Shown in pieces: positions 5,471 through 52,991 of a stretch of 52,991 nt of DNA. The stretch's first letter is position 1, and every line of letters starts with the position of its first letter. Position numbers and translations under genes: made by a program. A model generated the notes under the pieces. The model did no database searches. It was not told where the DNA came from and was given only the letters and a program-made list of their open reading frames with translations. This stretch comes from Girardia tigrina. Its lineage: Eukaryota. The stretch is from positions 53,752-106,742 of the forward strand of contig MQRK01244657.1 in the NCBI GenBank assembly GCA_001938485.1, written 5' to 3'.

Positions 5471-6708
5471 TTTATTACATATTCACCATTTATGGTAGTA
5501 CAATTGTTGAAAATTTTGTAGAAAAAAAAGATTGTAGAAAATCCACCGAAATATATCTCAAAAAATTTTAAATAAATATATTTTTGAAGCTAAAATGGCG
5601 TTTTTGATTATTTGAAAGATTTGTCATTGTTTTTTTTTCATTGCCTTATGAATATATAAAATTATTTTAAATAATTTTTTATTTTTATTTTTCAAGATAT
5701 GCTATAAAGATATATGGTATAAAGGATAACATAAAAAAAGATTAGAAAAAAGAATTGTTTTATCATTAAATTTTCCTGTCAATAAACTTTAGGTTGATGT
5801 GACGAAAGTCTTTTCATTTATTGTTCGAAAGTTGCAGGACTATTTCGATATCATTTCTTTTAGATGTTGTCTTCCTTTTTCGTGAAATAAATGTACATGC
5901 TTTACTAAATTTGATGCCAAATTTTTATATGAAAGATTTTGATAACATGAAACTGACTGTAATTGTCAAAGAACATTCATATAAATAATTATATTTTTCT
6001 ATTCTTGTATCATTATCTAAAACTAAAAAAAATAAAGAATGACCAGAATCATCCATATTATATATTATATAATAATATAATAGAAAGGTTAAATGATTCT
6101 CAAATATATTTTATTGTCATATATAAATAAAAAATTAATTATTTATTAAATAAATAATGAATTATTTATATAATTAATATAAATAAATAAAAGTAAGAAA
6201 ATATTTTGGTGCCCTTTTGATACTTTTAGAAAATTTTGAGTCTATTCTCGAAAAGATCATTACAGCTACAGTGAGCAGTCTTACAACCTCCAAACGTAAC
6301 CCTGTTCCAAATATAATTCAAACCCAAAAATTATTTTTTTGTTTTTTTCAAAACATCTACGTGTATTACTATTTATTTCGTATTTATTTCAACTTAAAAT
6401 GTGAAAATTAATCTGACATATATATTAAAATTTCCATCAAATACTTCTAGTCATACAAATATATTTATCTAAAATACTTATGGAAATACGTGATATACAT
6501 AAATCACCATGGGCTGGCTGGCATTAGGGATCTTATGGGGAATGATAGGAAATGAAGAGATACAATTTCATACATTATCTATATCATTACTGATCAAATT
6601 TAAGATAAACTTTAGTGTTACTTCATTAATTATCATCAATTATATTTCTATACCACTTGCTTCTTATTGACAGTTGATGGCGCCTGATTATAATCTCTCC
6701 ATATTCAG

Positions 6709-7101
6709 ATTCTTTCTGCCAGTAACAATAACGACTACAGCCAACAAGTGTACATTCATATGATGAGGGAAAAGGCTTGTATCATGCTAAAATCTCTTGA
6801 TATGTACTGTTTAGTCGGACAGTCGGCCGCGTCAAATTCTAGCAAAGCCAGTATCTTAATCAAAATAATATCATTTTCAGATACGTTCGATGTAGACAGC
6901 AATAATTTTACAATACGAGTATATACCATACCAAATACAAAAGAAGCTTTGGAAAGCATTTATTTCAAAGAGAATCGGTCTGGAGGACAATTCTTAAATT
7001 GTTCTCAAGTTCTGAATTTTATGGATAATAGGGAAAATCTTGTATTAAGAATTAATGAAATAAGTAAAGGTTGGAAAGTAAAACAGACTCCACAAACTCA
7101 A
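6709..7101 (+). CDS. unc5: UNC5 netrin receptor, exon (end of ZU5 and UPA domain); upstream exons not found in the window
   Basis: ttcag acceptor and CAA|gtattt donor; YCLVGQS...FTIRVYTIPNTKEALE..ENRSGGQFL...NLVLRINEISKGWK matches the UNC5 UPA pattern. Confidence 0.85.
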
Positions 7102-7152
7102 GTATTTTACCAATTTTAATTTGAATGATTTTTAATTTATAAATGTTTCTAG

Positions 7153-7533: not shown

Positions 7534-8804
7534 TTGGGTTGGCAACTAAGTATTTGCAGATTTCACTCATAGATGGCTTCAGTTAAATTTTTAGGTTTGT
7601 AGACGTAGTACAAATGTAAAACACATTTTGTTATTTGACAATTGGCAATTCAGCTGTCAATCAGTAAAAAAGGTTTTTTTATCGGTTGCGAAGTTTTCGT
7701 TTGGCCTTCGTTGAAAAATGGAAAATCAAAAGGAACATTTTCATCATATTTTGCTTTTTTATTTTCGCAGAGGGAAAAGCGCATTGCAAGCTCATAAAAA
7801 GTTATGTGCTGTTTATGTTGACGAAGCCTTAAAAGAACGGTAGTGCCAAAATTGGTTTTCCGAATTTCGTTCTGGTGATTTTTCACTCAAAGTCGTCCAG
7901 TTGAATTTGATGACGTCCTAATCAAAGTAATAATCGATTCGGATCGTCACAGTATAACGCATGAGATCGCAGAGAAGCTTCATGTATCGCATACATGCAT
8001 TGAAAATCACTTAAAACAACTTGACTATGTTCAAAAACTAGATAAATGGGTTCCTCATGAAATGATAGAAACGCATTTAACGCAACGCATTAACAGCTGC
8101 GATTTGCTAAAGAAACGTGATGAAAATGATCCATTTTTAAAACGACTGCTAACTGGCGATGAAAAATGGATTGTTTACAACAATATCAAGCGGAAAAGAT
8201 CGTGTAGCAGGCCAGGTGCACCAACTCAAACAACATCAAAAGCTGATATTTATCAAAGGAATGTTTTGCTATCTGTTTGGTGGGATTACAAAGGAATTGT
8301 CAACTTTGAACTCTTACCACCCAACCTAACGATCAATTCTGATGTCTACATTGAACAACTAACGAAAAAAAACAATGCAGTTGAAGAGAAGCGGCCCAAA
8401 TTGTCAAATCGAAAAAGTGTTGTATTCCATCATGACAATGCAATGCCACACACATCTTTGGCCACTCGGCAAAAATTATTGGAGCTTGGTTGGGCTGTTT
8501 TGCCACATCCACCATATAGTTATGACCTTGCACCATCTGATTACTTATCGTTTCGATCTTTACAAAACTCATCGAATGGTAAAAAAATCAATAATGATGA
8601 TGATGTCAAATCGTACCTAATTCAGTTTTTTGCTAATAAAAACCAGAAGTTTTATGAGCGTGGGATTATGATGCCGCCTGAAAGATGGCAAAGGGTCATT
8701 GATTAAAATGGGCAATACATTACAGAATAAAGTTATTTAGTTCCATGAAAAAAATTGTGTTTGATTTTCTAAAAAATTCCGCAATTACTTAGTTGCCAAC
8801 AGAA
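7534..8804 (+). mobile_element. full-length but inactivated mellifera-subfamily mariner (Famar1/Ammar1-like)
   Basis: ~30-bp TIRs TTGGGTTGGCAACTAAGTA..., TA flanks; transposase MENQKEHF (7718)...WVPHE...TGDEKW...HHDNA...YSYDLAPSDY with frameshifts and stops. Confidence 0.95.
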
Positions 8805-9984: not shown

Positions 9985-11771
9985 CAGTGGTGCGCAAACT
10001 ATTTTGTTGTACGACCCCTCTTCTGTATAAAATTTTGTCGCTACCCCATGGTAAATAATGGACATTTTTTCAATGAACAGTGTAGTTACAGTGAAATAAA
10101 ACACAAAATTTTTTAAGAACTGTTTTATTTATGTATAGAACTAATTTATAGAACTACAGTGAAGGACAAAAGTATTTGCTCAGATGTATTTTTAACATAT
10201 TTATGAAATATAAAATCTAAAAAGTTTAAAGCACCAAAGTTGGACAGTTGAAGATTGGAAACGTGTTATGTTCTCAGACGAAACAAAATTAAATAGAAGA
10301 GGCAGTGATTGAAAGGTCTGGACTTGGAGAAGACCTGGAGAACTTCTTAAACCAAAACATGTGAAGCAAACAGTCAAGCATGATGACTCTGTTATGGCTT
10401 GGGGATGTTTCAGTTCAGCTGGTGTTGGTGATATACAAATAATCGAAGGTATAATGCATGCCAATATGTATATCAGAATGCTTTCTCAGCATATGATTCC
10501 ATCATCAGCTCATTTATTTAAAGATGATTACATATTCCAGCATGATAATGATCCAAAGCACACAGCTAAGAAGGTGAAAGAGTATCTCACCAGAAAAAAA
10601 TATTGTAGTTTTAGACTGGCCAAGCCAAATTCCGGATCTAAACCCAATTGAAAACCTTTGGTTCAAGCTTAAAACCTTGATTAAATCAGAGGAAATAAAA
10701 AAATCAGATTAAATTGAAGGTATTAAAACATGCTGGAAAAAAATAACTAATGAGTATTGTAATTCGCTTATTGAGTCTATGCCACGTAGAATGGATCAAT
10801 TAGTTAAAAACAAAGGCTTATGGACAAATTATTAAAGTGTTTTTATGTCTTTTAAATAAATAAATCTTTCTGAGCAAATACTTTGCCTATGAGCAAATAA
10901 TGCCCATCGACTTTTCGAATTTTTCTTGTTTAATAAATAAAAATTAACCAAAATTAAAATTAAGCATATCAAATACATGTAGACGAGAACGAGAATTAAG
11001 AATATATTTATTTTTATGTTTTTGTGATTTTATATTTCATAAATATGTTAAAAATACATCTGAGCAAATACTTTTGTCCTGCACTGTATGTATTGAAATT
11101 TATGTATAGAACTATGTATCAATAGAACTAAGTATAGTTTAATATGTAAGCATGTATTTAATGAACTTTTCATAACAATATCAATTAATGAGAATGGTGA
11201 ACTGACAAAGTACTTATAATTGCGTATATATTTATATTTGAAATTGCATCCTCTGGGTCCCATAGAGATTGGTATTTTGATTTAATTGCCACTAATTTAG
11301 AAAATACAGCTTCGCATAAAGTAGGTTGATGCTAATTCAATCAAAATTGTTACCGTCTTCTTTAAATCGGTGTATTCATTTCCAATTGTTTACTAAAATA
11401 TTTGGCAAGTCCAGGACTTAAATTGAACTCGTAATATTTCGTCGTTTGAAATATATATTAATTGTTCTTTTTCAGTTAAAGTGATATTGAAATTTAAAAT
11501 ATCAAACTAGAATGGGTTGCAAATCAAACCTAATTCTTTTTTAAGAAATTTTTCAAAAAAATTTCTATCATTTTTATTAAATGTCCAGAAAAAATGTTTT
11601 TAAATAATTTTACATCAATATTAGTTTATTTGGCAAATTTTGAAAAGCACGGGAACATTTCTGTATTATTTTTATTTTGGTATTGATAAATAGATTTCTT
11701 CAAATTTTGCGACCCCCAAAATCTGTTCGCGGCATCTCCGGGGTTTGCGAACCCTAGTTTGCAGACCACTG
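9985..11771 (-). mobile_element. internally deleted hAT element, Charlie/Buster type
   Basis: TIR CAGTGGTGCGCAAACT / AGTTTGCAGACCACTG; perfect 8-bp TSD GTTTAGAT (NNNTANNN); minus-strand dimerisation motif ASTY.LCEAVFSKLVAIKSKY near 11270-11340. Confidence 0.9.
10157..11086 (+). mobile_element. internally deleted Tc1 (DD34E) element nested in the hAT
   Basis: ~60-bp TIRs starting CAGTG, TA flanks; FSDE, WGCFS, FQHDNDPKH and PDLNPIE motifs. Confidence 0.9.
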
Positions 11772-11846
11772 GTTTAGATGACACAAATATTCATTGATTA
11801 CATAATTCCTACTTGGCTATGTAAGCAGATTTATTATTCATAATTT

Positions 11847-12655
11847 AGTAAGGGGAAAATGTATGTTCGTTACCACCCCCGAGGAGGGATCACCCTAGCC
11901 TAGACAGCAACGGTTCCGGTTACGATAGCAATGGTCACAGTTACCACGGCAACGGTCTCTGTTACCAAAGCAACGCTTCTGATTTGTTCCTAGGTCCCTA
12001 GCAACGGTAGCGATTGGTCCCTGATTCCCTAGAAACGTTTCTCATTGGTTCCCAGTTCCTTAGCAACGGTTTCGGTTACCGCAGCAACGGGTTTCTATTC
12101 AAGTGCATCAGTACTTTTTTTTGATATTCTGCTTCTTTGTACCTCTAAAATCGATGTGCATTTTGTGTAAATATACACATTAAGCTAATTATAGGAAAAA
12201 GTAATCAATATATGAAATTTCTAATTGCATATTCAGATAGAAAATCAAAATCTGCATCAAACACATGATATCGATTTTTGACACTAGCACTTTTAGAAAA
12301 TTTTATGCATTGATTTTTGCACTTTTTGACATGTGCATTTTAAAAAGCACTGTGCTAGCACTTTAAAAATATCGATTAGCACATTTTTGCACTGTGCAGT
12401 GATCCATTAGCACTTTTTTCTACGGTTGCTATGGATACGGTAACCGTTACCAAGGTTACAACCGCCTTAAATCACTGTATCCGTTGTTAATGTAAAATGT
12501 CCCTTGGTTACCGTTGTTAGGGTGATCGGTTCCGTTGCTGCCTAGGCTTAGGGACCCTGGAATCAATGAGAAGTGTTACCAAGTGAACCGGAACCGTTGC
12601 CATGGCGACGGGTGACCCCTGGGGGGGGGGTAACGAACATACATTTTCCCCTACT
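11847..12655. mobile_element. non-autonomous Polinton/Maverick-like element
   Basis: Termini AGTA(A)GGGGAAAATGTATGTTCGTTACC / GGTAACGAACATACATTTTCCCCTACT; 6-bp TSD TAATTT on both sides; subterminal ~21-bp repeat arrays; no ORF. Confidence 0.75.
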
Positions 12656-13102
12656 TAATTTATTTGTGACCAGATGATGATGGCTATACCTTCGAAATTA
12701 TTTGTCTATAATTATAAAAAAAATCCTTCTTTAAATGGTGTCTTATTATGTTCAAAAATATAATACCGGTATTTTTTATTATTTAAATACAAATAAAATG
12801 GTAAGGAATTTTATTATGTATTGTGTAAAATAATAGGAAATCCAGACATTTTCCCTGAGTAGAATTGTTTCTTCGTAGTTGAGTTCTTACACTTTTATTC
12901 CTTTTCATCCCTTCTTCCTCTTGAAAACTAGAAAATATTATTATGAAATATATAAAAAAATTAAGTAATCAGAATACTTTGAATATGTAGCAAGACTCAA
13001 AATAACCACAGGAAAAGGTATTGCTCTTTAATTTAATATATTTATCGAAATTGTTTTAAATGTTAAATTGTTTTCAAAGTTTAATTTTTAAATTTAAATC
13101 AG

Positions 13103-13204
13103 TCTGTCAAATCAAACAAAAAAAGAACTATCCAAACTGTTGAATATGTACGATCCGTCTGGAAACGATTGGAGACTCCTGGCGAGAGAAATGCAAATAT
13201 TAAA
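13103..13204 (+). CDS. unc5: UNC5 exon (death domain, N-terminal half)
   Basis: Phase-2 junction gives FSLSNQTKKELSKLLNMYDPSGNDWRLLAREM, the UNC5 death-domain signature GNDWRLLA. Confidence 0.9.
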
Positions 13205-13247
13205 GTTAGAAGTTCAATTTGTAACAATATATAATTATTACTTTCAG

Positions 13248-13413
13248 AACAGACTTCTTTTTAAAAGAAAACCCAACAGACAGCTTACTTAATTTATGGC
13301 AAGCACAAAATTCTCAGAAGTCATATCTCAAAGATTTAATGATGATTTTTCAACGTCATAAAAGATTTGATTGCGTCTCCGTTCTGGAAAAATATGAAGG
13401 ATATCGACTGTGA
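13248..13413 (+). CDS. unc5: UNC5 terminal exon (death domain, C-terminal half)
   Basis: Follows a 43-nt intron; ENPTDSLLNLWQAQN...RFDCVSVLEKYEGYRL*; AATAAA at 13460-13465. Confidence 0.9.
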
Positions 13414-15626: not shown

Positions 15627-16429
15627 TGCCATAAATCCTACAACAATATAATTGTATTAAAAATAAGTATAATAATAATAAGTTACTTACAGGTTGAGCG
15701 CATCCTTCTGTACACGCAACCAACCTGATGACGTCGCGGCAGAATTAACCGGCGGGCTCGGGCCGAGTTCGGGATTCGAACATTTTAATTATTATATTTT
15801 TGTTTTTAAATTAAATTATTATCATTATTATATGTTCGTTTTAAATTGGTTTCAAATCAAATCAAATAAAAACAATTTCACATCAAATATCAAAAAGAAA
15901 ATCCAATCAAATTGAAATGGAAAATTAATTCATTAATTTTTGTCATTTTGAAAATTATTCGATGAAAATTGAACAATTTAAATTAATATTTTGAATATTT
16001 AGTTATTGATATTTGATAGTGTGAAATGACCTTGAGTTTTGTTTTGCGGAAATAAATTGACGAACTTGTAAAAACGATAGTGATTTTTGATTGATGAAAA
16101 TAAATTCGATACGTGACTGAATATCGTTTTGAATTGATTAAAGAGTGAATTTCTTTTCTGGATGCTGAATTATGCTAATCGCGATGTTAAAAAAAGACCA
16201 TAAATATTAAAATTACAAAAACATTGAATGATACGATTTTTGATGCGCCGCCTCTTCTCGTCGATATTATCAAACTCGAATCGATTTTAGATCTAAATTT
16301 GAATAGAAATAATCAAATAATCGGCGCAGTGTTTCTGTGTGATCGGCGAATAGAGAATTGTTCCAATAAGATTGGTTTTTACAAAGCGAAATGTGAATCA
16401 ATCAATTCGAAAATCGATACTGAAATGGT

Positions 16430-17103
16430 TAAAGTATTCTGTGAAAGATTCGAAAGATTTAATGACAAATTGAATTCGATAAGCGTTAATTTTCAAACGC
16501 TTCATCCATTCAAACCGTCATCGACTAAATGCACGAAAAACATCCGATATAATGCAATCGATTTTCGGGCCGGATTACTGGCGTCGATCGCCGGCAACAA
16601 TGTGGATTTCTGCATTGTCTCCTCGTGCGAGAGAGCGAGTATTGAATCGATCGACTTGAGGGACGGGCTCGTGAGTGTCGATCCGATTTTCTCTTTCAAA
16701 TTCCGGTTGAGTGTCACCTGGATCGAGTTCAGTTGCGGTGGATCGATTCTGCTGGTCGCCTTGGTGACCGATGATGGTCGATTGGCGACTGTCGGGTTGT
16801 TCCGTGTCGAGAGATCATTGCTGAAGAGTGGAGAATCGAATTTTTGTGAATATAAACTGAATACCGAGAGCCAGTTGGTTGATTTGCGGTGGCATCCAAA
16901 TGAGAAAGAGTCGTTTTTAGTGGTTTAGAACAATACGGTCTCGCTGTGTTGTGTGAAAGAAAACAAAATCGATATTATAAATCAGAAATCGAATGCTTTT
17001 TGTGTATCCTGGAGTCCGAAGTGATTTGTCATTAATCAGTACGACAATTTGATGAATGAAAAGCGTTCGAGTGCGATCAAAGACATTATCGACTCTCTCA
17101 GAG
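16430..17103 (+). pseudogene. Nup214 (CAN/Nup159) N-terminal beta-propeller fragment
   Basis: IEFSCGGSILLVA...FCEYKL...LVDLRWHP...AFCVSWSPK...INQYDNLMNEKR parallels NUP214 motifs; in-frame TAG at 16926 and TGA at 17022; GKQLAVG segment missing. Confidence 0.7.
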
Positions 17104-22292: not shown

Positions 22293-22620
<328 letters not shown>

Positions 22621-24025
22621 GGAGTTCATTGATATCATTCACACCGCTAATCTTCACATCCAACATTACAAATTCAAAAATTGCAAAGTCAAATAGCAAT
22701 TACGACTTTTCGATTCCACAAAAATATTTTTTCAATAAAAATTCTCTCGCATATCTCTTTACAACAATCGATTTTTAAAAAAAAATTATGGCGACTTTCA
22801 CTTTTTATTATCATAACCTTCGCGTCGATAAAAAGTAAATTAATACATTTAAACAAAACAAAACAGTTAACTTAATTAGATAAAATTTGAATGTTGGTGA
22901 AATAGTTTTGATTTACACACTAGAAACAGAGAGGTATTTTTGAAAAACAGACACTATTTTCAAATTCAATCGATTCGTAAATAATTTCGATGGTTCATTA
23001 CCGATAATCGATAAACATTTCAGACAACCGAAATTACATTTGAGATTTTTCAAAATAAACGAACCAGTTCTTCATTAGCATTTCAAAGATCGTCTGATTA
23101 CGGAATTTGATACGACAGAACTCATTGATTTGGGGATCAGTTTCAATGAATTCATATAAAACGTAATTGATTTCCAAAAAAATTCCAAAAGATTGACAAT
23201 TGTTTATTTGTTAAATTGAACGAATCTTTCATTTAAATTTTTTTACAAGCATGGTTTTGATTTATTTGAATAATTTTGAAACGATTTCAAAGACTTTCTG
23301 AAACAACTTTTACATTTCTTATAATAATCATCGCAAACGGATTTCTTTGATTTTATCGCGAAACACCAATAGCTCCAGAGATAAATATTCTACGAAACGA
23401 TCAAAGCACGTACAGAAGCTACCGAAATATCTAGATGAATGTGCAGTTTAATCTTGAGATCATGAGGGAGTGTAATTAAGTATTTCGTATCATAATTTTT
23501 AAAAATCTTACTATTAAATTGTAACAAGAATTGTTTATATCTTTTAAAAAAGGGGTTGTAAGGATGAATAAATATAAACAATCTTTTTTATATTACAATA
23601 GCTGATATTTATACTGAAATATTTTCATAAAATCTTGTAAAGTTTGTTTAAATAATGTCATCATTATTAATAAATTATTAACCATGACTTTACTTCTTAT
23701 AAAACAATTTAAAGGGAAAATATATTAACTATTTTCAAATATTAATTTATTTTAAATAATTATTACGATTATGTTACTGAATACTCCCATATTCAAATTA
23801 AACAAATATTTCTTTTAAAATAAAACTATTAAAACGAAGCATTTGTAAATTATTTTTCAATAATTAATTTATTTAAAATATTTAATACTGTTATATTAAC
23901 TATTATAAGATTATGTTATTTAATTTAAATTAAAAAAACAATTTCCATATAAAATTAAACAACGTTTGTTTTAATATTCATAAATTTCCAACATTATTTA
24001 AAAAACATAAATCAAAAATCAATAA

Positions 24026-32455: not shown

Positions 32456-32995
32456 TTAATACGGTGAATGAGGCAAAGTTTCATATCCCAGTTCGTTTAA
32501 CTTCAGCATGGTCTTTCTTGCAACATGTGGACAAGCGTTGTCATGCAGAAGAATTGACCCCTTTCTTTTGAGTAATGCTGGCCGTTTTTTTGTAGTTCTT
32601 GGTGCATTTTGCCAATTTGCTGACAATACTTTTCCACTGTAATTGTTTCGCCTTGTTTTAGGAAGCGGTAATGGATTGAACCGTGTGCGGACCCCCAAAC
32701 AGTTACCATGACTTTTTTTGTGTAATTTTGGATTCGGGAAAGGTTTTGGAGCCTCATTGAAATCCAACCACTGAGCTGAACATCGCCGGTTGTCGTATAG
32801 GATCCATTTTTCATCGCACGCTACAATTTGATCCAGAAACGGGTCGTTTTGATTACGCCAAAGCAGAGAAGAAGACACGTTAAAACGACGATTTTTTTGA
32901 TTTTCGTTTAATTCGTGCGGCACCCACTTGTCCAGCTTTTTCCCGATTTTCTTCATTTGGTGAACAACTGTTGATTGGTGAACGTTGAGTTCTTT
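32456..32995 (-). mobile_element. cecropia-subfamily mariner fragment
   Basis: KKLDKWVPHELNENQKNRRF...CDEKWILYDNRR...LLHDNA...LNELGYETLPHSPY, frameshifted. Confidence 0.9.
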
Positions 32996-34494
32996 TAAAT
33001 TTATTTATACTTGTTATCAAAATATAGAGTAAAGTTTAGGCTTTAAAGTAAATTTAAATATGAATCTATTTATTAATGATTTTCTAAATATTTCAAAAAA
33101 TGAATATTAAATACATTAAAAACGACATTTTTTGCCTCAACCTATTTACAGGGTTTTCAGTAAGATATTTTGTTCTAAATTGCCGGAACATTTTAAAATA
33201 GTAACAATTGTTGGCTTAGATATTGATAGGTCTTTCATAAAATTTTTGATTTGCTCTTCTTTTGACCATCAATAAATAATTTCCAACTAATTTGTTAACG
33301 AAATTTTATAATTTTCTAAAAAAACTACAGTTTCTTAAGGGTACATAAAATTTGTATTTAACACAGTGTTTGTTTAGACATCTTCATGCGTATTTATCTG
33401 AAACATTGAATCTGTTGACAAAGACAGTTTCCGTTAAACACTCTGGTTTTAAAAAAAAATTAATGAGATCCATATTTGAACCACTGATAAATAGCTTCTC
33501 GATTAATTCATGATCGGTACTCATTTTTAATAATACTCACTGCAAATATAAGAACAAAAATAATTACAAATCGGAAATTACACAAGTTAATAAAATTATC
33601 CTCCAAATTACACTAGTAAATAAAATTATTCCAGGATCATTTTATTTACTTGATCCGGAATTTTATTTAATCAAGCTTTTTATTACTTTTTAAAATAAAA
33701 TATACTAAACATAAAATTAATTTATTCCATTTCTAATAAAGTCTAATTAATTTGTAAAAAAACATTTTTAACTTAAAAATAATTTATTGTGTTCTATTAC
33801 ATATTTTTGAATGTTTATTAAACTTTTATTATTTTTAAAATGCGTTTATAAAATTTTATGACAAAAATAAAATGCAATGAATTTGTAAAATCTAAAAAAA
33901 TATTTACAATTAAATCCATACTATTTGTTGAAATTTTTATTTATTATGTATTTTTAAAATATATTCTAAGCACAATAAAATTAATTTTTTTTTCATTTAT
34001 ATAAACATCTAATTTTAAAATTTATTTGTATAAAACTATTATAATTTCTTAAAAATACATTTGTAGTAGCTTGATATTATAAATTTAAGCAATAAATTTA
34101 TTTACTTTATTATTTCTTTTTAAAATCTTATTTTAATAATTTCTGCTGAATATATAAATTTTTGATTTTTTAGATTTTAAACTGTTTTTTGTCTTACATA
34201 AATATTTACTTTTTGCAAAATTTAAAATTATTTAGCGAATCAAAAATTTTAACTAACTCTTTATACTCTTTAAACTTTTCACGATACCACCACCTGATAC
34301 AATAACAAGATGGAAACAGGGTTCAAAATATGATGGTTGCATTATCAATTATTTTGATCTAAATGTTCTTTATAGTAAGGGGTATTCAATATTAAAAGAA
34401 TGTTTTAGATTTTTTTCTTGATTTTTATACTTTATAGACAGATTTTATTGTTAAAAAATGAAATAAATTTTTAAGATTATTGTATTTCAATCAG

Positions 34495-35337
34495 GAGAAC
34501 TTTCTATCAGTCAGTGATTTTGACGAATCAGGCGCTGTTTTGTGTTGCAATATAGATCAATATATTCGATTAATGAGCGATTTACGATTGTTGAGCTTCA
34601 GCTGGAGCGCTTTATGTCGAAAAATAACGAATGGGAATCAATATCGATTATTGGCTGTGCTCGCAGAATCGGGGCTGATGATTGTTTGGCGAATAATCGA
34701 AAACGACTGCGAATTGATTTACCATTATCGATTTGAATCGACCGCCCTCTCTAGGCCTATGCGAATTCAGTGTTGTGATTTATCAGCTAATCGGTTAATG
34801 ATAATCGTTTATTACACCGATCAGCGGATAGTTGCTCATTTGTATCAAATAAATCGATCAATCGATGGAGATGATAAATCTTTAGAATTGATCTCAACTC
34901 ACATGGTCCGAATTCCGATAGATAATCGATTTGGATGGTGTCAATCCGTGAAGACGTGTTGGGTGATCAATCACTCTCTACTGATTGTTGGGTTCGTATC
35001 GGAGTTATTGCTGATCAAATTTGAGGTACCAGACGCGACGGAGTCAACCCCGAGTATCGGGCGAGTGTCGGCCGTGTGCTCCTGGTTTGAAACACCATCT
35101 CATGGTACTGTTACCGGTTTGGTTGTCAAGGACAATACGGTAATCTTTAGCACGAGAGACGGACATCTGTTTGTGATCAAACTGGACACGACCTTTGATC
35201 AAATTGATCTCATTCAACTTCGGTCCGAGTGCCGAGAATTGGAAAGTTCGCGAAAGGAAATTATCACATTGTTTCTGTCACCGAATGGTGCTCAATTGGG
35301 TTGTGTCATCGCGGATATCGACCGATTATCTTCTCAG
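34495..35337 (+). CDS. GTF3C4: GTF3C4 exon 6 (beta-propeller)
   Basis: 843-nt open exon; FSWS...LLAVLAESGLMIVW...LFLSPNGAQL; CAG|gtaact donor. Confidence 0.85.
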
Positions 35338-35669
35338 GTAACTTTGACTTTGGGAATATTTGCGTTTAGTTTTATTTTTAAGAAAATATTTGACTTTATT
35401 AAAGTATTAAATAGGACTGCATAATTTTATTCTGTAATAAATTATACTTTTTATTATAAAATAATAATTGATTGTAAAGAAAATAAAATATAAACTTGAA
35501 TTTATTCACGAGATACAAACTGAATATTAAACCAAATACATTTGTTTGTCATATATTCATCGTTTCATTGAATAATTTTAATTAAAATCATCGTACAAAT
35601 AATCACATTCATCAGAGAAAACAACATCCTTAACAAATTTCAATCAACATCTAATAATTATCAAAAAGC

Positions 35670-38458: not shown

Positions 38459-38562
38459 TTAAAGTATTTTTATTTCTAAACTGCTAATACTGAATTACTT
38501 TCTAAAATACATATTATATGTACAAGTAATGTTAGTTCAATATAATGGACTCAATATTACAG

Positions 38563-39340
38563 TCTGCGCATGGTACTCTATTCGATTTGGTTTTAATCAC
38601 GCTAATGTCTGAGAAAGAGTTACTAAGCATACTCATGGACAACAGCCGACCACTTTGGCGAAAGGGAGATGTGCTTGAGGTATTGCGGCAGATTTACTGG
38701 GGACAGCGCCACATGTATAACTCAGCCTTATCGCGTCTTGCACGCTGTGAGATCGTTTGGGAGTGCGGTGATATTTACGGACTACAATTAGCACGTCTTT
38801 TGTGTGTTCTATTCGGATATCGTCTCGACCAGAGCTTGGAGCAACACCGCTCATCGAATGATATGATACGGATGCGGCGACTAGAGTCTCACCTTGTCAT
38901 CAACTCGGTGCTAAACTCAATTGATTCTCTCATCAAATGTGAAAAGATTGATCGATCAGAGAGTGATTTCTGGCTCTCGCTGTTACTCGCGGTGCGCGTG
39001 CGAATTGCGATCAGTAACATCGTCACTGATCAATCGATTGCTGTCCTTAATCTCAGACAAGCCTGTGAGACCGCCGTTAAGAATACTCGCGGCATTCTAG
39101 CTGCACAATATGGGGCCAAAGATATTGACCTCGATCGGTGCGAGTCAGAAACGTTAAAGTGTGTTTGTCCCGTGTGTCAGGACAATTGCGCGTTTAGTCT
39201 ACACGCTTGCAGTTGCCACAAAGGTCATGTGACACAGCGTTGTTGCAAGACTCTCGAGCTGTGCACTGCAGACACCGCTGTTGACAAATGTACATTGTGT
39301 GGAGCTGTTCAGATATCTCGAAACAATTCCACAATCACGA
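38563..39340 (+). CDS. GTF3C4: GTF3C4 exon 7 (start of the C-terminal zinc-binding domain)
   Basis: CPVC...CHKGHVTQRCCKT...CTLC is the zf-TFIIIC pattern; A|gtgagt donor (phase 1). Confidence 0.85.
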
Positions 39341-39406
39341 GTGAGTGAAATTTTATGCGATTTTGATATTTATTGATTGAATTCTAATAATAAAATGAAT
39401 TTAATA

Positions 39407-40157: not shown

Positions 40158-41490
40158 TTGGGTTGTTGCATAAATTCCCGTCGTTACATGAAACTATTTG
40201 TTATACGAAGACTTTGATGTTTGGCGAAGTGTTATATACCATTAGAAAGCCCGTGCTATGCCCTACAAGATTAAAGTAATCGTTCTTGCCTATATTATTT
40301 TTTTGTCTTTTTTTAGAACCGTCATATGGATTGTCAAGTCGACAAAAAAATCGCATTTTCGACACCTTCCTTTCGCCTTTAATCGAGGTCAAAAAGCGAG
40401 TGAAGCTACCAGAGATATTTGCGCCGTGTATGGAGAGGACGCTATAGCTGAGAGAAATGCTCGGGATTGGTTTGCCAGGTTCAAACACGATAATTTCGAC
40501 CTCAACTATGCTCCTCGTTCCGGAAGACCAGTCGAGATAGACGAGGACCAACTTGGGGATCTTTTGAAGGAAGATGGCCGCCAGACATGCAGAGAATTGG
40601 TCGAAAAGATGAATTCTGATTTTGCGACAATTTCACGCCATCATCAGTCGATGGGTTTCACTCAAAAGCTTGGAGCTTGGGTCCCGCACGAACTCACCCA
40701 AAACAGAAGGATAAGCGGCTTTCCATTGCTGCTCAAAATCTCGCTCGACACCAAGGAACCCATGGCCACAGGCAACATTTCTTATACAGAATCGTCACTG
40801 GAGACGAAAAATGGTGTCTCTATGTGAATATGAAGTAAAGGAAAGTGTGGGGGAGTCCTGGAGAGAAGCCTCAGTCCAGGATCAAGAAAGACCTGCACCC
40901 AATGAAGACAATGATTTGCGTATGGTGGGATTGGGAAGGTCTAATCCACTGGGAAATGCTTGGAAGGAACATGACAGTAGAAAAGAATCTCTGTAAAGCC
41001 CAATTGCATCGAGTCAAAAAAGACCGGATTGACATGGCCAGGTGATCCTACTCCATGACAATGCTCGACCATACACCGCAAAAACTGTCAAGATGGCACT
41101 CCAAGAGCTCGGTTTGGAGGTCATTCAACATCCTCCCTATTCCCCAGACCTCGCCCCGACGGATTACCATCTCTTCCGCTGCCTTTCAAATGAAATGAGG
41201 GGTCTTAGCTTCGAAAATCAGGATCATCTTGAGAATTGGCTCAACAACTTCTTCGAGACTCGACCTAAGGATTTCTGACGAAATGGAATCAAGAAACTGG
41301 TGGAAAGATGGGAAGAAGAAGTGAACAATGAAGGAGAATACATAATTGATTGAAGTGTCATTATTTTTGCTGTTAAAATTTTATGATTTCATTAAATATA
41401 TAATTAACTGAGTCTTTTGGTTGTTAAAATTCTTTGATTTCTTTGAAAATAAATGTTTAAAAAACGGCGGGAACTTATGCAACAACCCAA
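40158..41490 (+). mobile_element. full-length, inactivated mellifera-type mariner
   Basis: TIRs TTGGGTTGTTGCATAA..., TA flanks; WVPHEL, TGDEKW, LHDNARP and YSPDLAPTDY split over frames. Confidence 0.95.
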
Positions 41491-45764: not shown

Positions 45765-47036
45765 CAGTATGATTCATAAGTCTGTTCACCCCCCTTATTT
45801 TTTGAGAAAAGATAAAATTCTTAACAAAACATTTATTATGTGGAACTTTCAATACTTAGTTGAATGTCCATTCATTTTCTTTATCATTTTTAATCGCCTA
45901 GGCATGGATTCAACAAGACTTACAATAATGGTTTGATAGTTCGTACCATATTTTTTGAACAGCCACCAACAACTGTTCTGACGATGTCCACCTTATCATC
46001 TATAATTTCCTTTTTAAAAGTCCCCATTCATTTTCGATAGGATTTGCGTCTGGTGAATTGCCTGGCCATGGTAAAAGGTCGAATTCCTCTTTTTTTAAGA
46101 AATTAAATATCGACAGTGCACGGTGTGGTGGTGCAAGATCTTACTGAAAAATGAATTGTTGTTTTGGAAATACCGAGCACTTTCCAATAATATCAATGTC
46201 ATGTATTATAATTTCTTGGTACATTTGAGCATTCATTGACCTTCTACCTACACAGACCTACACAGTTTGCCGAAAAGCACCCCCAGACATGAACTTTGGC
46301 TCCGTGGCTCATGGTTTCATGGATGTTTCCGAGTTTGAGCTTTTCATTTCTAGTTCGTCTGGTCCAATGTCTACCACGATGATTATAACATTGGAAAATG
46401 CATTCATCGCTAAATATAACAGAATACCATGTTTCTTTATCCCAATTTTGATATAATGATGCCCACTGCATTCTTCTTTGTCTCTGTTTGGCGGTAAGGA
46501 AAGGTTTCTTTACAGTTTTGAATGCCCGTATTCCATATTCCTGTAAAATCCTTTCGACTGTCGACTTATGGCTATTGAGGAAGAAGAATTAAATATCATT
46601 GTTTAAATAACTTATGCGTTTAATCACTCTTTCTGATCTGGCGCTTAGTTTATGAGGTCTGCCTCCACGTGGTTGATCTTTCACTTCTCCTGTTTTTAAA
46701 TACTTCGCCCATATTTTTTGCATTCCACATTTTGAAATATTTATATTATATCTTGTAAATAGTTCGACTTTTATTTGATTCCATTTACTTCCTGCATTTT
46801 TAAGTGCAACAATCATTCCACTCTCAAATTCACTAAATACTCTTGACATTTAATTTATCTAAAATTTAAAAAAATAAGTCATTAATGAAAATTTCAATAA
46901 TTAACATATAAATTCAAATGTGTAGCATAAAAAAACTATATATAAATAAATATTCAAAATTAATATGACGTCAAATTTTTAGTTAGAAAATAAGTAATCA
47001 AAATATGAGGGGTGAATAAACTTATGAATCATACTG
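45765..47036 (-). mobile_element. Tc1 (DD34E) element, full-length and inactivated
   Basis: TIRs CAGTATGATTCATAAG..., TA flanks; FSDE, WGCFS and NSPDANPIE motifs; stops and frameshifts. Confidence 0.9.
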
Positions 47037-51912: not shown

Positions 51913-52870
51913 CAGGGGTGGCCATAAGTCGTTTTACCCAGTTTTAATAATAATAAACACAAAATTCTAAATGATTTATAAACAAAAACCAGATAAAATA
52001 TTTTGTTTTAATAATTATTTATTTAAAAAATTTTTAAATTATTTCATTTTGTTCATTTTTGTTTGCAATATTTGCATGGCACGACAAATAACCCTTTAGC
52101 AACGAATTTTTATAGTAAAGCAGTGGATAAAGCATGATAGAAATTCAAGAGCTGTAGCTGCAGCATTTGCAAAAGGGTATCCTAATGACGCTCCTCCATC
52201 ACGACAATCAATGCATGTTTTAGCTAAAAAGTTTCACGAGACCGGCTCTGTAACCGACAAAAAAAGAAGTGGGTGCCCTAACAATATGAATACCGATGAA
52301 AATAAAGAAAATGTTAGAACTTTCTATCAGAATGCGCCATCAACATCTGCAGTTCGTTCAAGTTTGCAGTTGCATATACCACGCACAAGTTTACGTAGAA
52401 TAATGAAGGACATTGAGTTGAAAGTTTGGCGACCTCGTTTGCTCCATCAAATGAATGATGACGATTATGACAGGCGCATAGAATTTTGCGAATGGTTACA
52501 GCAACAACGACATGAGAACATTGACATCAGGGACAGAATAATTGGGACCGATGAAGCTTCATTGAAGTTGAATGGTCACGTTAATTTGCATAATGCCGTG
52601 TACTACTCCACTGAGAATCCTTATCTGGTATGGGAGCCCAACAATCTTTCTCCAGGAATTTGTGTGTGGGGAGAAATACGTTCAACTGGTGTGCTGGGTC
52701 CATACTTCTTTGATGGAATGGTCAATTCTCAGCTATATCTCGACATGATGCGTGATTTTGCCGTACCTCAGTTTGATACAGATAACGACGTTTGGATGCA
52801 AGCACCGTCTTAGACGGTGCTCTCCCTCATTATGGTAGAAATGTACGCGACTTTTCGGATAACACTTTTG
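51913..52870 (+). mobile_element. rosa/DD41D-like Tc1/mariner element, interrupted
   Basis: TA-CAGGGGTGGCCATAA end; KFHETGSV, TDEASLKLNGHVN, GPYFF and DGA.PH motifs; homology stops at 52870. Confidence 0.85.
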
Positions 52871-52991
52871 AGTAGGGAGAAAATGGGCATTCGGCCTACA
52901 CCCCCCCCCACCTAGCCGTAACCATGGCAACGGTATAGGTTATCGTGGTTACCATGGCAACCGTCGCGATTACCTTAGCAACGGTCGCGGT
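52871..52991. mobile_element. left terminus of a second Polinton-like element (runs off the window)
   Basis: AGTAGGGAGAAAATG...C-run, then CCATGGCAAC repeats; same architecture as 11847. Confidence 0.7.

Follow-up and report, generated by a model that had tools for sequence, protein, structure and literature searches.

What is the 809-bp insertion at positions 11847..12655 of the Girardia tigrina DNA analysed here (the window, a stretch of 52,991 nucleotides to which unprefixed positions refer), from what does it derive, and what might read the arrays of X-box-like motifs at its ends? The element begins AGTAAGGGG, finishes CCCCTACT and is flanked on both sides by TAATTT. An initial annotation, made from the letters alone, had described AGT..ACT termini, an exact 6-bp target site duplication (TSD) and no coding capacity at these coordinates, and the sequence bears this out in full: the two copies of TAATTT occupy 11841..11846 and 12656..12661 (both on the + strand), and no stop-to-stop frame inside the insertion is longer than 49 aa. 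Contigs of two public runs cross both the left and the right insertion junction with 0–1 differences, and no empty-site allele was present among the joints listed for these two runs. Summed depths in public runs were around 1e7 over the core vs about 90 over the single-copy flank, figures that do not represent a copy number.

The ends are genuinely inverted, as had been proposed, but the suggested repeat core of about 45 bp underestimates them: the left tip (11847..11921, + strand; AGTAAGGGG..., with a run of C) mirrors the right tip (12586..12655, − strand; AGTAGGGG... when read inward) over approximately 72 bp at 82%, and beyond this the arrays of the two ends differ. The left array (11906..12089, + strand) contains X-box-like units at 11940, 11961, 11993, 12055 and 12075 with periods of 21 and 31 bp, together with ATTGG at 12013 and 12044, and the right array (12421..12612, − strand) contains units at 12425, 12446, 12499, 12575 and 12596. 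At the deletion junction, 12089..12090 (no strand assigned), the left array is joined to an AT-rich segment from the right terminal repeat, 12090..12420 (+ strand), that is about 85% identical to the inner repeat of the type A, B and S elements described below. Far from being filler, these 'central' 330 bp are the inner (subterminal) part of the long terminal repeat of the family.

The presence of X-box arrays at both ends was upheld by comparison with 1000 dinucleotide shuffles of the ends. Together the ends contain five strict GTNRCC-N0-3-RGYAAC sites, where the shuffles average 0.01, and 18 RGYAAC half-sites, where 1.5 are expected, neither number being reached in any of the 1000 shuffles. 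The ends thereby match, above chance, the RFX consensus RTNRCC-N1-3-RGYAAC as given in PMC2375033. The three example motifs of the initial annotation lie where it had placed them (11940, 12425 and 12596) and its spacing of about 21 bp is present, but the estimate of some seven to eight units per end is reduced to five per end at up to two mismatches. Similarly, ATTGG (CCAAT) boxes were said to be interleaved with the X-boxes; two exact sites do exist, but both are in the left arm and their number is at chance level (reached in 280 of 1000 shuffles).

When the genome was searched with the 809-bp element, 6876 candidates were returned, 40 of which were scored, and the best matches all start at element position 243–273 and run on inward into further family sequence. 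The terminal inverted repeats of single elements align over 583–1171 bp between their two ends, and the best matches to the left end of the 809-bp copy reach only 74–87%. Because the matches start at 243–273 and continue inward, the copy can be understood as the outer 243 bp of one end fused to 566 bp of the other, and on the strength of these matches and its sequence we describe 11847..12655 (no strand assigned) as a gene-less internal-deletion derivative of an X-box-ended Polinton family. As for TSD length, in nine of 12 two-ended copies 5–6 of the 6 flanking bases match (1.1% by chance), with poor agreement at lengths of 4, 5, 7 or 8, and three have no duplication. This count leaves out L134, whose right end is beyond its stretch, and L095/L096, whose left tip is eroded.

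Elements that share these ends do carry genes, as the suggested search for autonomous partners encoding polymerase, integrase and capsid had anticipated. Type A, of about 8–9 kb, has the same ends as the 809-bp copy (L115/L116, L119/L120, L170) and lacks a polymerase; between its ends lie, in order, an ATPase-like gene, the integrase, the minor capsid, a small core-like gene, the major capsid, the protease and a small gene termed ORFz. The integrase is recognized by Pfam (rve, PF00665, E 8e-13, plus a chromodomain), and the ATPase-like gene gives weak P-loop matches. The model of the major capsid (pLDDT 88.7) matches the double jelly-roll capsids of iridovirus, PBCV-1, mavirus and Sputnik, with E of approximately 1e-15 to 1e-13 for the first three. 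No match was returned for the capsid, protease or minor capsid in the Pfam search, and a scan of viral contigs with the capsid alignment gave nothing; the protease and minor capsid are presumably what their names say, being assigned from known motifs and from the gene order common to relatives.

Type B, of about 6–8.5 kb, encodes a protein-primed polymerase (pPolB) with an endonuclease VII-like insert and has neither capsid nor integrase. The family pPolB, found in types B and S, is matched by Pfam (PF03175, E 2e-13), and that of type B is closest to the polymerases of arthropod Polintons and adintoviruses (40–55%). In L095/L096 an 851-bp inverted repeat (90%) surrounds the pPolB gene, with ends as in the 809-bp copy. 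Type B sometimes also carries a TBP-like gene and one unknown gene. The former (L150:1897-2190; PF00352, E 3e-17 in L182) adjoins the ATPase in whole relatives (L182:2160-2618), and the latter, of 187 aa, varies in position among type B copies, preceding the polymerase in some and following it in others (L134:7700-8260; L150:2587-2809; L055; L067). Between the polymerase start frames of L150 there is, in addition, a short inverted-repeat insertion that by eye resembles a C-terminal fragment of histone H4.

The association of the same ends with pPolB, integrase and capsid genes and with a putative ATPase and protease, together with the 6-bp TSD of other copies, establishes membership of the Polintons, and we are in very little doubt that the 809-bp insertion is of Polinton origin. 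A MITE from an unrelated cut-and-paste superfamily would likewise be short and non-coding with inverted ends, but the direct flanking of pPolB and capsid genes by these ends and the inner repeat refutes such an origin and leaves it a negligible probability.

The two coding types appear separate. Among stretches of up to 10 kb picked on longer contigs, none of the 20 chosen by polymerase (from 140 scored matches) contained capsid-module genes, and none of the 39 chosen by capsid (from 150) contained the family pPolB. In the same way, 27 of 30 type A ORFz loci run into the terminal repeat and none into a polymerase (three are uninformative), and 24 of 30 type B polymerase starts follow the terminal repeat or the unknown gene and none follows ORFz (six are uninformative). 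The idea that the family has no whole element at all was nevertheless overturned by type S, in which ORFz leads directly into the polymerase start on more than 20 contigs and in one outside record. Here capsid, protease, ORFz and pPolB are contiguous, with the capsid genes directly before pPolB; on five scaffolds the S polymerase is linked across a gap of 3.7–4.5 kb to an X-box end, and on a sixth the 3' part of the polymerase adjoins the inner repeat. Type S is known from short contigs and gapped scaffolds, no copy being complete end to end, and it is young, with a within-S synonymous distance of 0.02–0.06 in ORFz and the polymerase region POL1. Its sequence occurs in RNA or possibly-RNA runs, the contigs of which cannot themselves show transcription. 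No stretch of this genome among those examined held S integrase and polymerase together, while both are present on one element in the relatives L182 and L198. Two type S scaffolds (L345:4107-4502, L346:4335-4813) also have small ATPase-end genes downstream of the polymerase, across a gap; this reflects terminal repeats that contain genes or else an error of scaffolding.

The metagenomes yield more distant relatives, which are whole, have the polymerase facing the capsid module and contain 0–1 X-boxes in the stretches examined, from which element ends may be missing. One apparent pairing of capsid and polymerase in this genome (L113/L114) was rejected, as it places a family capsid gene near the distant polymerase (37%) of a different Polinton that has a gene set of its own. 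Further, distant families of pPolB are present in the genome (L053, L093/L094, L113, L109, L060, L080), with 2257 candidates for PF03175, and no strict X-box was found in ten stretches of such families that were checked.

The initial annotation regarded the 809-bp copy as a cis-only parasite of a virus-like element. A gene-less copy with Polinton ends fits this idea, but its amplification as a mini-family is unsupported: the junction of the copy is spanned by no other among the 40 scored matches, which include no MITE-like set of many copies sharing one junction and length. Because the junction is in no other scored copy, we regard it as a one-off deletion and not an amplified MITE. Other small two-ended copies of 801, 1014 and 1314 bp each have another junction. 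For the same reason, that no second copy shares the junction, the deletion may have occurred in place, a long Polinton having inserted here and lost its interior later so that the 809-bp form never moved as such. The differing junctions of all four small copies examined and the low identity of the left end to its best matches favour such a course of events, which is nearly as likely as a deletion before insertion. Against it, 4 of the top 40 loci are small two-ended copies, so that these are not rare, and three of them keep an exact duplication; moreover, defective linear replicons likewise give rise to internal deletions. Overall we lean, by a little, towards a deletion that preceded insertion.

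Whether the coding types are themselves functional was addressed by comparing codon differences common to at least three copies with private ones in the classified A and B loci. Shared variants of type A comprise 59 synonymous and 51 replacement changes vs 234 and 795 among private ones (p 5e-11), and those of type B 234 and 218 vs 365 and 1109 (p 4e-26); the integrase, with six copies in the classified set, is too sparse for this tally. The genes of A and B both show purifying selection in their shared variants. As type A copies have one homologous ORFz-to-repeat junction (24 readable of 27), the shared A variants post-date the loss of the polymerase, unless they were imported by recombination.

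The synonymous distance between A and S is 0.23–0.27 vs 0.60–0.75 between B and S, and with A so much nearer to S, a simple fission of the present S into A and B does not account for the two types. Polymerases of B and S form one clade (100/100) with B nested inside; the ORFz tree is a quick version that does not resolve the nesting of S within A. Near-identical S ORFz genes precede polymerase starts with differences of up to 40%, a sign that modules have been exchanged at that junction. The inner terminal repeats are equally alike (0.86–0.89) within and between A, B, S and the minis and intermingle in one FastTree tree, which has no support values shown and serves only for the lack of clustering.

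Complementary gene sets are found on separate molecules with shared ends, an arrangement expected of a segmented (bipartite) virus, and we slightly favour the view that A and B complemented each other as a working pair, although they need not depend on each other because the whole element S exists; the selection on both bears on mutual dependence indirectly. That this Polinton lineage is a segmented integrating dsDNA virus, with a capsid/integrase and a polymerase segment whose recombining RFX-site ends are pooled with those of a whole sister and of defective minis, is a reading we hold tentatively, at just under an even chance. Alternatively, and with a somewhat lower but still appreciable probability, A and B are two long-lived non-autonomous classes helped by S, their apparent selection being inherited or imported by recombination. 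The presence of S, its youth and its identical type of end are all in keeping with such help, as is the nesting of B polymerases among those of S, and mobile polB-less Polintons are reported in insects (bioRxiv 2025.02.07.637071). Arguing the other way, the single ORFz-to-repeat junction dates the shared variants after the loss, unless imported, and selection to maintain genes for capsid, protease and polymerase is not what one would expect in pure parasites.

The arrays vary across the family in a manner that bears on their function. Over 95 family tips, which start AGTAG and then become G-rich (88 start AG, the search pattern itself having demanded an AGTAG-like start), they are assembled from a small kit of units in widely varying number, the commonest being a 14-bp palindrome with a 21-bp period. 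Among 51 readable arrays there are 49 different layouts, a number that fuzzy matching may inflate. The variable positions of the 14-bp unit are those left open by the RFX consensus: when units are aligned at GTTRCC, their right half is A-T-(A.48/G.45)-G-C-A-A-C, and four of the eight positions after it vary widely. Conservation of the units is not independent evidence of selection because they descend from one another. The host genome contains RFX genes or RFX domains, and we consider it likely, from the motif profile, that the terminal arrays are binding platforms for host RFX; that RFX is their actual reader is somewhat better than an even bet.

Alternatively, the reader of the arrays could be encoded by the element itself, as its integrase or its terminal protein-polymerase, or the arrays could be products of slippage; the likeness to X-boxes would then be incidental. 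The highly variable layouts and unit number suit this alternative, as does the greater divergence of the tips than of the inner repeat within one element (76% vs 96% between the left and right sides of L150), and we consider it a minority possibility that deserves weight. A first point against incidental likeness is that 42 of 55 ATTGG sites at family ends fit the extended NF-Y pattern and lie on one strand; these are candidate sites, supporting a possible role of NF-Y at the level of the family only. In addition, the unit agrees with the strict RFX consensus, including its purine/pyrimidine degeneracy (PMC2375033). Reading by the element's own protein is at odds with metagenome relatives that have the same integrase and no arrays; since these related whole elements lack X-box arrays in the stretches examined, Polintons in general do not require them. 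For RFX itself there is a precedent in the AAV2 terminal repeat, which is bound by RFX1 and RFX3 according to PMC5760533, and by analogy recruitment of host RFX to the Polinton ends is plausible.

The insertion was also said to lie in an unc5 intron, and this location is confirmed: upstream is an exon with a UPA domain (6694..7116, + strand; PF17217, E 2.7e-13) and downstream are two death-domain exons of the same unc5-like gene (13098..13410, + strand; PF00531 positions 1–39 and 44–85). The accompanying suggestion that the inserted X-boxes provide an enhancer found no evidence. The idea that the unc5-like gene has co-opted the insertion as an enhancer of cilia type draws on the intronic position and the X-boxes carried there, but we consider it very unlikely: the units of this copy are no nearer the consensus than those of other copies, an intronic copy is to be expected because there are thousands of family candidates genome-wide, and an X-box by itself is no predictor of control by RFX (PMC2375033). 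A second family member is visible at 52871..52991 (+ strand, from its sequence) as a left tip with the first X-box units, cut by the contig end, and is inserted where a Tc1/mariner-type transposase frame (52100-52813) ends. Remnants of Tc1/mariner transposases are also found at 7879-8706, 10313-10835, 32456-33004, 40246-40827 and 46244-46588, two of them in the same unc5 intron. The window further contains large host exons at 16191-16928, 34462-35424, which matches the TFIIIC delta propeller (E 2e-11), and 38536-39348, as well as a ubiquitin fragment (22293-22541, +) and, overlapping it on the other strand, an exon for the N-terminus of importin-beta (22388-22699, −).

Non-autonomous Polintons in Repbase have lost sequence but retain intact ends, and would depend on enzymes supplied in trans by a complete element. 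A gene-less Polinton remnant is ordinary in itself; a family with reshuffled RFX-type ends that occurs side by side in whole, split and gene-less form is notable. The 6-bp TSD, AG-starting ends and long terminal inverted repeats are shared with Polintons/Mavericks (adintoviruses), as are the pPolB, rve integrase and major capsid of the parent family and its putative ATPase, protease and minor capsid (PMC8097293, PMC10748475, PMC8502044). Unlike these, the family also exists as separate capsid/integrase and polymerase elements, its ends carry reshuffled X-box arrays and the 809-bp copy has no genes. The ends read AGTAG and not the (AGT)2 or (AG)3 of vertebrate Mavericks, although other types of Maverick end motif are also listed in PMC8097293. 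The mobile polB-less Polintons of butterflies (bioRxiv 10.1101/2025.02.07.637071) are similarly deleted elements with intact ends and would require trans-acting enzymes, but the helper there is a complete element and no polymerase-only counterpart is described in the portion available, whereas here the polymerase-only class is abundant and under selection. Bidnaviruses resemble the family in that their genome consists of two segments whose termini match and in that their pPolB derives from a Polinton; they differ in being single-stranded, with a parvovirus-type capsid and no integrase (PMC8502044). AAV2, likewise a linear DNA virus, has an RFX site within its terminal repeat, in the D sequence; there one imperfect site is present and binding is shown (PMC5760533), while here there is an array of near-perfect palindromes, to which binding is predicted. 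A Maverick expansion is reported for Dugesia in bioRxiv 2025.12.11.693146, and nothing decisive was added by PMC11071308, PMC6431247 and PMC3245922. No description of a split or bipartite Polinton, or of RFX sites or X-boxes in Polinton ends, planarian Polintons included, was found in the literature covered, outside which lie most subscription journals, Repbase and supplements.

Taken together, we consider it probable that the 809-bp element is a gene-less, Polinton-derived insertion, a defective replication product inserted in trans, whose arrays are candidate RFX platforms. The family would replicate as linear DNA, with a protein-primed start at the AGT tips, and deletions sparing both ends could generate defective genomes during replication, which integrase from A or S would then insert in trans with a 6-bp duplication. 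A and B may complement each other, or draw on S, for polymerase, integrase and capsid. Much as RFX1/3 act on the AAV terminal repeat, dimers of host RFX bound to the palindromes, perhaps aided by NF-Y on the ATTGG module, might activate or license the ends, opening them in particular host cells.

Cis-acting Polinton ends are almost uncharacterised, and this family offers ends reduced to a minimum, a candidate host factor and arrays whose number of sites varies naturally. The whole, split and gene-less forms together would constitute a natural record of a linear DNA virus becoming segmented. Polymerase modules able to move by themselves would account for the polymerase exchanges reported between Polintons (PMC10748475). 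If the reshuffled arrays are indeed acted on by RFX, this would tie activation to ciliated or germ-line cells, with ends competing for the host factor, and X-box arrays present in thousands could titrate RFX or rewire the cilia genes of the host.
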